Source: Candidatus Omnitrophota bacterium
Lineage (GTDB): Bacteria > Omnitrophota > Gorgyraeia > JAFGHF01
Direction: 5' to 3'
DNA: 64,000 nt
NCBI GenBank assembly: GCA_020341815.1
Contig: CP070837.1
Span: 1,044,575 to 1,108,574 of the forward strand
The notes under the pieces were generated by a model. It searched no databases. It was not told the DNA's origin and was given only the letters and a program-made list of their open reading frames with translations. The first letter of the stretch is position 1. Each line of letters opens with the position of its first letter. Positions 32,853-35,035 of the stretch are shown here, in pieces. The translations under genes were made by a program, and so were the position numbers.

Positions 32853-32921
32853 TTTAGTTTAATGGTGGGCCGCCAACAATAATCTGGCGAGCCTCACCAG
32901 TAATTTTTCTTTGAAAATTAC

Positions 32922-32998
32922 TGGTGGGCGGTACAGGATTCGAACCTGTGACCTTTTGCATGTCAAGCAAACGCGCTAACCAACTGCGCCAACCGCCC
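32922..32998 (-). tRNA. tRNA-Val (anticodon GAC)
   Basis: Reverse complement GGGCGGTTGGCGCAGTTGGTTAGCGCGTTTGCTTGACATGCAAAAGGTCACAGGTTCGAATCCTGTACCGCCCACCA folds as a cloverleaf with loop TTGACAT. Confidence 0.85.
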
Positions 32999-33006
32999 TA
33001 TTGTTC

Positions 33007-33094
33007 TGGTGCCGAGAGTGGGAGTCGAACCCACACGGAGCTAAGCTCCAATGGATTTTAAGTCCATATCGTCTACCAGTTCCGACATCTCGGC
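33007..33094 (-). tRNA. tRNA-Leu (anticodon TAA), type II
   Basis: Acceptor GCCGAGA/TCTCGGC, anticodon stem ATGGA/TCCAT with loop CTTAAAA, long variable arm, T-arm GTGGG-TTCGACT-CCCAC, CCA encoded. Confidence 0.85.
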
Positions 33095-33096
33095 AA

Positions 33097-33771
33097 TCAA
33101 TTATTTTCACCAAAAACAGTTTTACTCTTCTGCCAACCTCTATAAGAAACGATGCATTCCTGAGCTAATTTCATTTTTCTTTTTAACCCAAGAGCATGTT
33201 TATAATAACATTTTTTCGCAATCTCTCTCGCTGCCATCTTACCATATTTTAATACCCATTTAGTTTTAGTAGTACGTTCTTTGTGAATTTTACCATGAAC
33301 TCTTAATAGTAATGTTATCGCACCATCTAACCATTTGACAAATTTTTCGGAACCAGAATAGATCCTTAAGCTCCATTGTTCTCTATTATTAGTTGGGTGT
33401 ATCCATCGACGTATAGAACCATCGCCATCGATTAAACCTCTTAAAAAATCAATAAAGTGTTGGTTGGGTACTTCTATTGCACCCAAAGTTAATGATTTAT
33501 TTTGCGTGAGCCCAATAGATAATAGAAAATCATAGAATCTAACATTCGAAAATTGAATTTGATAAGCTTGATTAATTTTATTTTTATTTTTAGTACCGAC
33601 CTTATTAATCAATCCAAGTGTATTTTTAAGTTCTTTAAGAAATATAAAATCCTTTGAAGTAATATTTATATGCCTTCCATCGCAACTTAAACTTCCATCG
33701 CTGGTAATTAACCCCACTAAATACCAAAGATTTGTTCCTTTGATTTTTAAATCTTTTCGTTTATGTGGCAT
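33097..33771 (-). CDS. free-standing double-motif LAGLIDADG homing endonuclease
   Basis: Two LAGLIDADG motifs, LVGLITSDGSL and LRGLIDGDGSI, about 100 aa apart. AT-rich. Bounded by intact tRNA genes 3 and 9 nt away. Confidence 0.8.
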   Translation of the reverse strand: MPHKRKDLKIKGTNLWYLVGLITSDGSLSCDGRHINITSKDFIFLKELKNTLGLINKVGTKNKNKINQAYQIQFSNVRFYDFLLSIGLTQNKSLTLGAIEVPNQHFIDFLRGLIDGDGSIRRWIHPTNNREQWSLRIYSGSEKFVKWLDGAITLLLRVHGKIHKERTTKTKWVLKYGKMAAREIAKKCYYKHALGLKRKMKLAQECIVSYRGWQKSKTVFGENN

Positions 33772-33780
33772 TTATCAATC

Positions 33781-33855
33781 TGGAGGCGGCTGTCGGATTC
33801 GAACCGACGAATAAGGGTTTTGCAGACCCCCGCCTTCCCACTTGGCTAAGCCGCC
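33781..33855 (-). tRNA. tRNA-Cys (anticodon GCA)
   Basis: Acceptor GGCGGCT/AGCCGCC, discriminator U, anticodon stem GGGGT/ACCCT with loop CTGCAAA, T-arm GTCGG-TTCGAAT-CCGAC. Confidence 0.8.
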
Positions 33856-34496
33856 CTTTCTATTCTCTCAAGCAAAACTCTGGAAAGATGCGTTTTGGTT
33901 TTTGCTTTTATTTCCTGCTTATATCCGTTGCTATCGGCAAGCAGAACATCGATGCCTTTTTTCCCGAAGGGAAGTTTATTTATTTTCATCTGCGTTGCCA
34001 CAATCAAATCCAGATTTTTCTCTTTTAATTTATCCTGCGCATTTTTCTGCAGGTTTTCTGTTTCCAGGGCAAAGCCGACCAGCATCTTCTTCCCTTTTTT
34101 ACCGCCGAGGCTCTTCAAGATATCGGGATTCTGCTTTAATTTCAGCTCTATTTCCTTTTTATTGCCTCTTTTGATTTTCTTCTTCGCTGTTTTCTTGACA
34201 TAGAAATCACAAACAGCCGCTGTCATTATCAGGCAATCGCACCAGCCAAATACTTTCTCAAGCTCTTTTTTCATCTGGCGCGCCGTAACTACATCTATCA
34301 AGCGCACGCCTTGCGGCCTCAATAATGAAGTCGGCCCGCTAATCAGAATGACCCGATGTCCTCTTTTTACGGCTTCTTTTGCGATTTCATAACCAAGAAA
34401 GCCCGTAGAATAATTAGAGATAAATCGCACCGGATCTATAGGCTCACGCGTCGGCCCGGCAGTTATCAGGATATTGAGCCTTTTTTTTAGCTTCAC
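33846..34496 (-). CDS. coaB: phosphopantothenate--cysteine ligase (stand-alone CoaB domain)
   Basis: ILITAGPTREPIDPVRFISNYSTG motif of Dfp C-terminal (CoaB) domains. The last 3 codons overlap the tRNA-Cys 5' end. Confidence 0.8.
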   Translation of the reverse strand: MKLKKRLNILITAGPTREPIDPVRFISNYSTGFLGYEIAKEAVKRGHRVILISGPTSLLRPQGVRLIDVVTARQMKKELEKVFGWCDCLIMTAAVCDFYVKKTAKKKIKRGNKKEIELKLKQNPDILKSLGGKKGKKMLVGFALETENLQKNAQDKLKEKNLDLIVATQMKINKLPFGKKGIDVLLADSNGYKQEIKAKTKTHLSRVLLERIERAA

Positions 34497-35035
34497 TTTA
34501 AGTTCTTTATCGCTTCTTTGACTATCTCAGCTACATCGGCAAGATGCCCCATTCCCCTGCCGCCGCAAACTAAATGCCCCACTTTAGGACCGACAAAACG
34601 ATAGCCCAGCTTCTTCAAGCGAGCGATATTCTCCGATGTTATTTTATGCTTGAACATCTTCTCGTTCATCGCACAAGCGATTACTACCGGCGCGCGCGTA
34701 GAAAGCGCAAGGCATGTTAATGCATCATCCGCAATGCCGCAGGCAAGCTTTGCCACTACATTCGCCGTGGCCGGGGCAATCAACACCAAGTCCGCCTTTT
34801 CCGCCAGAGAGATATGCGCCGGGCTCGCGTGCTCTGCGGGCGTAAATAAATCGCAGATTACCTTATTTGCACTTAAGGCCTGAAGCGCAAGAGGCGTAAT
34901 AAACTCCTGAGCCTCTTTTGTCATTACTACGGTGACATTGATATGGCGCTTCCTTAAGCCATTGATTATCTCGCAAGCCTTATAGGCGGCAATACTGCCG
35001 GTTACTCCTAATATCACTTCTTTCTGTCTGGGCAT
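34493..35035 (-). CDS. coaC: phosphopantothenoylcysteine decarboxylase (stand-alone CoaC flavoprotein)
   Basis: ILGVTGSIAAYKA flavoprotein motif. 4-nt overlap with coaB. Confidence 0.8.
   Translation of the reverse strand: MPRQKEVILGVTGSIAAYKACEIINGLRKRHINVTVVMTKEAQEFITPLALQALSANKVICDLFTPAEHASPAHISLAEKADLVLIAPATANVVAKLACGIADDALTCLALSTRAPVVIACAMNEKMFKHKITSENIARLKKLGYRFVGPKVGHLVCGGRGMGHLADVAEIVKEAIKNLK

Follow-up and report, generated by a model that had tools for sequence, protein, structure and literature searches.

A free-standing LAGLIDADG gene at a conserved tRNA-Cys/tRNA-Leu(UAA) junction in Omnitrophota: a probable case of intronless homing

Introduction

To our knowledge, bacterial LAGLIDADG enzymes have nearly always been described within introns or inteins. 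The subject of this report is a 224-amino-acid (aa) open reading frame (ORF) that stands by itself between two tRNA genes, tRNA-Cys(GCA) and tRNA-Leu(UAA), in a 64,000-nucleotide (nt) stretch of DNA from a Candidatus Omnitrophota bacterium (GenBank assembly GCA_020341815.1, contig CP070837.1, positions 1,044,575 to 1,108,574; the whole stretch is referred to here as the window), and that is probably the gene of a homing endonuclease spreading through this junction without an intron. Intronless homing by free-standing endonucleases is itself established (PMC3984707). One example of such a gene among tRNA genes is phage T4 SegB, a free-standing GIY-YIG endonuclease in the phage tRNA cluster that recognises the tRNA T-psi-C motif and co-converts neighbouring tRNA genes (PMC2330249). 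An initial annotation of the window likened the ORF to the T4 tRNA-region endonucleases, and as a functional analogy this is sound: both are free-standing endonuclease genes among tRNA genes that are absent from the same region of relatives (PMC2330249), and SegB co-conversion may have a parallel here in a block of ORF plus tRNA-Leu that has been swapped between two close relatives (L027 and L028; sampled loci are cited by such handles) and in mosaic tRNA alleles. As kinship the comparison fails, for SegB is a GIY-YIG enzyme of a phage genome (PMC2330249), spreading in co-infection, whereas the family described here is LAGLIDADG, non-homologous to it, and resident on bacterial chromosomes at one fixed junction.

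Among LAGLIDADG enzymes proper, I-Tsp061I and I-DmoI (PDB 2DCH and 2VS7) are monomers too, about 200 aa in length and with an acidic residue at the end of both their LAGLIDADG motifs, but they lie inside archaeal rRNA introns, while the window ORF is free-standing between tRNA genes and only 18–19% identical to them. The LAGLIDADG endonucleases inserted in rRNA genes of the candidate phyla radiation (CPR) belong to the same superfamily and, here too, one sees target-specific spread into conserved RNA genes of ultra-small groundwater bacteria (PMC11270868). Those endonucleases, however, sit within 16S and 23S rRNA genes as intervening sequences, whereas the present family lies between tRNA genes and interrupts neither; the main text of that study contains no occurrence of the term tRNA (PMC11270868). 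A literature search for a free-standing LAGLIDADG gene at a bacterial tRNA junction found no description of one, the nearest parallels being in fungal mitochondria. There, free-standing LAGLIDADG ORFs are found outside introns, often near tRNA genes, and are polymorphic among relatives (PMC6221350, PMC4019555), but they are organellar, occupy many sites and are often degenerate, whereas the present family belongs to bacterial chromosomes and keeps to one conserved site. The protein family, for which NCBI already has a name, is not new; the novelty lies in a niche fixed at a tRNA junction, in occurrence across phyla and in a layout punctuated by tRNAs.

Results

The window ORF belongs to a family tied to one tRNA gene. 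A protein search returned 691 relatives, the best 120 of which share 60–73% identity with the window protein over a length of about 219 aa; every named one of these is Candidatus Omnitrophota, and the nearest besides the window's own copy stands at 73%. NCBI already names the relatives “LAGLIDADG family homing endonuclease”. A scan of one genome per species found a relative in 155 species, with Omnitrophota, Patescibacteria and other phyla as hosts, and 80 loci were retained (81 with the window); the locus search demanded intact motifs and is therefore biased against degenerate copies. In 80 of the 81 loci, tRNA-Leu(UAA) lies directly downstream on the same strand (77 called by ARAGORN, two interrupted by a group I intron and one truncated where its contig stops); the locus left over is likewise cut off by its contig end. 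Going upstream, the first tRNA met is tRNA-Cys(GCA) in about 70 loci, and gene synteny is conserved in about 60 occupied loci. The link to tRNA-Leu outlasts relocation of tRNA-Val to the upstream side (L025, L027, L028, L043), and is also seen without tRNA-Cys (L016, L018, L037), with an upstream tRNA-Thr (L011) and with tRNA-Cys on the opposite strand (L079). Patescibacteria loci (L063, L065, L069–L071, L076, L078) have the same arrangement without the Omnitrophota flanking genes and with their own tRNA-Leu type.

The Cys-Leu(UAA) adjacency is ancient and is conserved from E. coli to Omnitrophota and CPR. The E. coli K-12 annotation gives glyW-cysT-leuZ with 12 nt between cysT and leuZ (a blastn search of E. 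coli with the window tRNA-Leu gave no match, and the adjacency is taken from that annotation), and the CPR locus L078 reads Gly(GCC)-Cys-ORF-Leu(UAA). Such conservation would explain how an element of this kind crosses phylum boundaries.

The spacing to tRNA-Leu is tight. A stop codon falls 0–15 nt ahead of tRNA-Leu in 54 of 77 loci, while in 21 of the 77 there is none and the frame continues into the tRNA gene (among them L006, L007, L026, L029, L031, L036, L040, L042, L047, L050, L053, L055, L066, L067, L070, L073, L075, L076, L077 and L079). In L029, L050, L075 and L076 the TAA anticodon of tRNA-Leu serves as the stop codon. RNase P processing would leave the mRNAs of such stop-less members without a stop codon.

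Close relatives of the window host share the synteny gmk-rpoZ-coaC-coaB-tRNA-Cys-tRNA-Leu-tRNA-Val-thrS-infC without the ORF. Empty sites were sampled by anchoring on ThrS, independently of the ORF, and the ORF is absent, with no replacement gene, from all 12 Omnitrophota contexts so obtained. The window ThrS has one relative at 95% identity (L162) and about 40 clusters at 76–83%, in contrast to the ORF product, whose nearest relative stands at 73%. The four closest contexts sampled (L162, L163, L165 and L166; ThrS 81–95% identical to the window) are all empty, with Cys-Leu spacers of 2, 31, 24 and 8 nt, and none of six further relatives at 66–72% ThrS identity has the ORF. The other two contexts, L082 and L106, were the informative ones in a ThrS-anchored metagenome scan in which the matches listed were mostly from other phyla. 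Both have the same synteny and are empty, with Cys-Leu spacers of 321 nt of short repeats and of 39 nt, respectively, and the nearest ThrS relatives of both are occupied genomes, at about 80% identity. The initial annotation had proposed comparing these tRNA clusters across related genomes for presence or absence of the ORF, and the comparison bears out its expectation, down to a relative at 95% ThrS identity in which tRNA-Cys and tRNA-Leu are 2 nt apart.

That relative, L162, defines the insertion to the base. Its junction reads ...GCCGCCTCCA-AT-GCCGAGATG... (or, quoted to another extent, ...CGATTGCCGCCTCCA-AT-GCCGAGATGTCGGAATTGG...), whereas the window has 686 nt in place of AT. The order in the window is the tRNA-Cys end ...CCTCCA, a 9-nt leader GATTGATAA, ATG...TGA, TT, and then GCCGAGATG..., the start of tRNA-Leu, so that 675 of the 686 inserted bases are ORF and the insertion amounts to the ORF plus 11 nt. 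The flanking genes are collinear and 91–93% identical in DNA. Relative to its closest relative, the window ORF is thus a clean, base-precise insertion, and as all four closest sampled relatives are empty, a single gain in the window lineage is more parsimonious than several exact losses. Membership of a larger integrated island was rejected in view of this insertion size and the collinear flanks.

Several minor features of these sites may be recorded alongside. The motif GATT stands on both sides of the window insertion (33772–33780 and 33095–33099), in the arrangement CCA-GATT-GATAAATG...AATAATT-GATT-GCCG, and the empty site of L166 (2628–2635) reads CCA-GATTATGA-GCCG; the 4-nt repeat could reflect a 4-nt overhang, or chance. 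The tRNA-Leu spacers of L082 (819–1139 and 1223–1330) are full of short palindromic repeats (e.g., TTTTGCGACAAGCAAAATTTTATTGGCACTCAAGCGAGCG and AATTCGCTGACACTAAGTAGCGGGCGAATTAACAAG) resembling miniature repeat elements. A match to the ORF in the L082 spacer (E = 8e-4, 28% over 57 aa) is weak and unconvincing as a remnant, and other apparent ORF remnants in empty loci proved to be tRNA-Leu matches from query ORFs that read into the tRNA. Some relatives have additional genes separating the tRNA cluster from thrS; three loci encode a T2SSE-type ATPase there, and one encodes a serpin (L166:2917–3999, L167:2917–3999, L082:1449–2525, L169:2763–3989). The region downstream of the tRNAs is thus variable too.

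The protein has the features expected of an enzyme of this class. Pfam LAGLIDADG_3 matches two stretches of the ORF (E = 2.1e-9). When 26 members of the family are aligned, 56 columns are invariant, among them D25/G26 and D117/G118, and the acidic motif-end residues D25 (in LITSDG) and D117 (in LIDGDG) are invariant in all 26; the window copy retains every family-invariant residue. The AlphaFold model is confident (predicted local distance difference test, pLDDT, 87.4; predicted template-modelling score, pTM, 0.87); it places helices at 12–25 and 103–116, each followed by beta hairpins, which gives two half-domains, and shows no additional (helix-turn-helix) domain. A Foldseek search of the PDB places I-Tsp061I first (E = 5e-12, template-modelling scores 0.69/0.75), followed by I-AniI, an intein endonuclease domain, WhiA, I-OnuI and I-DmoI, with the bI3 maturase also among the matches; I-Tsp061I, I-AniI, I-OnuI and I-DmoI are matched with a Foldseek probability of 1.00. 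I-Tsp061I is the top sequence match as well (E = 5.6e-5), and the Pfam WhiA model scores below its threshold (19.9 versus 23.2 bits). Judged by sequence and model, the protein is a compact single-chain, two-motif LAGLIDADG endonuclease whose active site appears intact and which would be expected to cleave DNA. One member, protein P0114 (L049:5001–5825), is 274 aa long; some 50 aa of it form an internal insertion, and Pfam gives it an additional match, PF09062.

The ratio of nonsynonymous to synonymous substitution rates (omega) lies at 0.05–0.27 across the family, indicating purifying selection, and 78 of 80 copies are intact, L074 being a frameshifted copy. The divergence of the ORF does not keep step with that of the host genes. 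Synonymous divergence (dS) of the ORF is 0.25–0.40 in L030, L035 and L038, against 1.2–1.7 for the adjacent thrS, while for L027/L028 and L005/L035 it is saturated against a thrS dS of 0.9–1.2. L027 and L028 share 91% identity in ThrS and only 58% in the ORF protein; in their DNA the flanks are 80–90% identical and tRNA-Val 100%, as opposed to about 55–60% for a block of ORF plus tRNA-Leu with sharp edges. The nearest neighbours by ORF and by ThrS agree in only 7 of 46 genomes. Because the ORF is both too similar and too divergent relative to thrS, strict vertical descent does not fit, and the ORF appears to have been exchanged horizontally at its fixed site, with a history decoupled from that of the host genes. 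The notion that ORF and tRNA-Leu always move as one cassette holds for L027/L028 but not generally: the partial correlation of ORF with tRNA-Leu divergence given ThrS is 0.08 overall, and there are pairs in which just the ORF, or just tRNA-Leu, has diverged.

The tRNA genes at the site bear marks of their own. Fragments of tRNA stand upstream of the ATG in at least 12 occupied loci. In L002, L006, L011, L034 and L043 these are tRNA-Leu 5' ends of 15–21 nt that abut or overlap the start codon; in L008, L047 and L080 they are tRNA-Cys 3' fragments that stop 6–10 nt ahead of the ATG. The fragments in L073 and L080 start at the tRNA-Cys anticodon, and the upstream spacer of L075 is also scarred. 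An empty site, L168 (3741–3806), has a duplicated tRNA-Cys 3' half that starts near the anticodon. Between the window and L162, tRNA-Cys and tRNA-Val are 85% and 85.5% identical, respectively, versus the 91–93% of the flanking genes, and all five pairs of the tRNA-Val anticodon stem differ. Two very different acceptor types of tRNA-Leu(UAA), GCCGrGG... and GGGCrrG..., alternate among close relatives (L027 versus L028, L162 versus L163, L082 versus L106), independently of the presence of the ORF, and the tRNA-Leu genes of L027 and L028 are 60% identical. Scars, the frameshifted L074 copy and mosaic tRNA alleles, as traces of repeated breakage, fit homing at a fixed site.

In two of the 81 loci an intron-bearing tRNA-Leu(UAA) lies beside the ORF. 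The tRNA-Leu that follows it in L061 (5636–5960) and L064 (1080–1437) is split in the anticodon loop by a group I intron of 232 and 269 nt, respectively (Rfam RF00028 matches at 65.3 and 76.9 bits, the gathering score being 50); ARAGORN missed both split genes, and these are the two complete loci lacking a call. In each the ORF precedes the 5' exon and is not part of the intron, and these introns do not make the window ORF, whose locus has none, intron-encoded. Both loci may be instances of an ORF-less intron with a free-standing endonuclease as its neighbour.

Discussion

We consider it probable, with good confidence, that the ORF encodes a LAGLIDADG homing endonuclease, stands free in the tRNA-Cys(GCA)/tRNA-Leu(UAA) junction and spreads by intronless homing, its cleavage activity and target being inferred. 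The initial annotation had read a free-standing ORF in a tRNA cluster in this way, and empty relatives, the missing intron and intact, selected copies all support it. It had also asked whether the ORF is a degenerate pseudogene in relatives, which the 78 intact copies, the low omega values and the invariance of both catalytic Asp residues answer in the negative.

The proposed cycle would run as follows. A promoter scan found no promoter between tRNA-Cys and the ATG, and the ORF would be transcribed with the tRNA operon, without a promoter of its own. RNase P cleavage at the tRNA-Leu 5' end, together with trimming at the tRNA-Cys 3' end, would release an mRNA whose leader is 9 nt and whose trailer is 2 nt long, and such tRNA-punctuated release probably keeps expression low. 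The 9-nt leader has no Shine-Dalgarno-like motif, but this is not a special trait of the ORF, such motifs being uncommon ahead of the neighbouring housekeeping genes too. In alleles without the ORF, the monomeric enzyme would recognise an asymmetric stretch of about 20 bp, within or beside conserved tRNA-Cys 3' or tRNA-Leu 5' sequence, and break both strands in or close to the junction. An allele with the ORF, arrived by some form of DNA uptake, would then act as the repair template, so that the ORF would be copied in and neighbouring tRNA genes, serving as homology arms, would often be co-converted; tRNA-Cys is likely the left arm and tRNA-Leu the right, or else part of the target. An insertion between intact tRNA genes would cost the host little, much as an intron does. 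The tight spacing to tRNA-Leu, together with the scars, suggests a target in the 5' region of tRNA-Leu or the 3' half of tRNA-Cys.

Several observations weigh against this account. Cys-Leu spacers in empty sites range from 2 to 321 nt, and a single 20-bp target spanning both tRNAs therefore cannot be conserved in all of them. Co-divergence of ORF and ThrS is significant (Mantel r = 0.55, 0 of 2000 permutations), and among occupied loci the GC content of the ORF tracks that of the host (r = 0.85, with ORF GC below flank GC in 80 of 81), so that inheritance is in large part vertical and long-term. Degenerate copies number one or two in 80, fewer than simple gain, decay and loss would lead one to expect, in a search that is biased against them by its need for intact motifs. 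No donor of more than 73% identity was found, and the gain in the window lineage can be neither dated nor traced.

Part of this evidence could also be read as pointing to a host function. WhiA is a co-opted LAGLIDADG fold without the catalytic Asp residues, and the ORF product might by analogy be a domesticated protein tied to the tRNA operon, serving regulation, tRNA-Leu maturation or locus-specific recombination. Strong purifying selection with 56 invariant columns, the constrained spacing to tRNA-Leu, ORF GC that follows the host, the scarcity of pseudogenes and the presence of WhiA and the bI3 maturase among the fold matches are all compatible with domestication, as is the identity of ORF products to the window copy (57–68%), which is comparable to that of ThrS and above that of Gmk, CoaC and RpoZ. 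Indeed, the hundreds of relatives at 60–73% and the conserved synteny, with conservation resembling that of ThrS, had led to the suspicion of a domesticated gene carried throughout the phylum, which was dropped once ThrS-anchored sampling found none of 12 contexts occupied and the closest relatives empty. A host gene missing without replacement from all of these, with both catalytic Asp residues invariant, with no extra helix-turn-helix domain or above-threshold WhiA match, and with dS discordant with host genes in both directions, is in our view quite improbable. A similarly slim chance attaches to the window copy's being a stranded, inactive relic of a former homing gene that is intact only for want of time to decay. 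The nearest sampled donor is indeed only 73% identical, and the 9-nt leader has no Shine-Dalgarno motif; but the latter holds for much of the neighbourhood, the window copy keeps every family-invariant residue, and the omega values speak for a selected function across the family.

Least probable, and by some way, is an intron association of the window ORF, whether as the remnant of a gene encoded in a group I intron of tRNA-Leu(UAA) or as a partner in collaborative homing that targets the intron insertion site. The introns of L061 and L064 would suggest it, and there are documented cases in which a free-standing endonuclease and an ORF-less intron home in collaboration (PMC3984707, PMC6083498). 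On the other hand, tRNA-Leu is uninterrupted in 77 of 81 loci, including that of the window, which contains no intron RNA; the ORF fills all but 11 of the inserted bases; and in the two intron-bearing loci it lies outside the intron. Were the intron insertion site the target, the intronless tRNA-Leu next door would moreover be a target of the ORF's own enzyme. A different extension is unlikely but would be more far-reaching, namely that the target lies inside the essential tRNA-Leu(UAA) or tRNA-Cys gene, rather than in the spacer, and that the family causes these tRNA genes to be replaced time and again, both inside a phylum and from one phylum to another. Such a target would account for the two acceptor types, for tRNA-Leu 5' fragments at the start codon and for tRNA-Cys fragments starting at the anticodon. 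L061 and L064 suggest a stronger version still, equally unlikely, in which the family would be the missing mobility partner, by collaborative homing, of the ancient ORF-less tRNA-Leu(UAA) group I intron.

On the preferred reading, intronless homing at the tRNA-Cys/tRNA-Leu junction, a large and conserved free-standing family uses a tRNA junction as a safe harbour. Occupied, empty, scarred and frameshifted alleles of one site make up a natural data set on the homing cycle in uncultivated, ultra-small bacteria. The expression layout is unusual: tRNAs punctuate the protein gene, and about a quarter of members have no stop before the downstream tRNA. The family may also have practical value, as a source of some 150 naturally occurring versions of a compact meganuclease scaffold of 220 aa whose targets would be related, and the two loci with an adjacent tRNA-Leu(UAA) intron offer a lead on whether free-standing endonucleases and ORF-less introns meet at this gene, and on how mobile introns form.

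Layout of the window locus

The features of the locus are collected in the table. The initial annotation had described an AT-rich, 224-aa double-LAGLIDADG ORF between tRNA genes of the same strand, and the ORF list, Pfam, base composition and ARAGORN confirm each element of this: GC content is 0.31 overall and 0.28–0.34 along the length, versus about 0.45 in the flanks. Of the two spacings it gave, the 9 nt to tRNA-Cys is correct, while the 3 nt to tRNA-Leu becomes 2 nt on reading the sequence. Its statement that there is no intron scaffold and that the flanking tRNAs are intact also stands. ARAGORN finds three intact tRNA genes in the window, each with an encoded CCA end, and no split tRNA, and an Rfam scan of the window at a permissive threshold returned these three tRNAs only, with no group I or group II intron (no RF00028 match). 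No further copy of the ORF was found in the window.

Features of the tRNA cluster and inserted ORF, in window coordinates
Feature	Position	Strand	Evidence and remarks
tRNA-Cys(GCA)	33781..33855	-	Intact, CCA encoded; ARAGORN and Rfam tRNA (65.8 bits); upstream flank of the insertion
A/T-rich leader GATTGATAA, 9 nt, from tRNA-Cys CCA end to ATG	33772..33780	-	Sequence reading
Probable free-standing single-chain double-LAGLIDADG homing endonuclease gene, 224 aa, ATG...TGA	33097..33771	-	ORF list, Pfam
TT spacer, 2 nt, from TGA stop to tRNA-Leu 5' end	33095..33096	-	Sequence reading
tRNA-Leu(UAA)	33007..33094	-	Intact; ARAGORN; downstream neighbour of the ORF
tRNA-Val(GAC)	32922..32998	-	ARAGORN; third gene of the cluster
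59-nt segment after tRNA-Val, toward thrS	32863..32921	-	Absent from L162; alignment with L162

On the same strand, gmk, rpoZ, coaC and coaB precede the cluster, and thrS and infC follow it. In the window (33846–35035), and likewise in L162–L173, coaBC is split into overlapping coaC (Flavoprotein) and coaB (DFP) genes, and in many occupied loci coaC alone was detected next to tRNA-Cys. Within the 59-nt segment lies a terminator-like site (32900–32884), and GGCGGCCCACCA, which follows its hairpin, resembles the 3' end of another tRNA-Val allele; the segment may be a scar left by recombination and also the place where the tRNA transcription unit ends.

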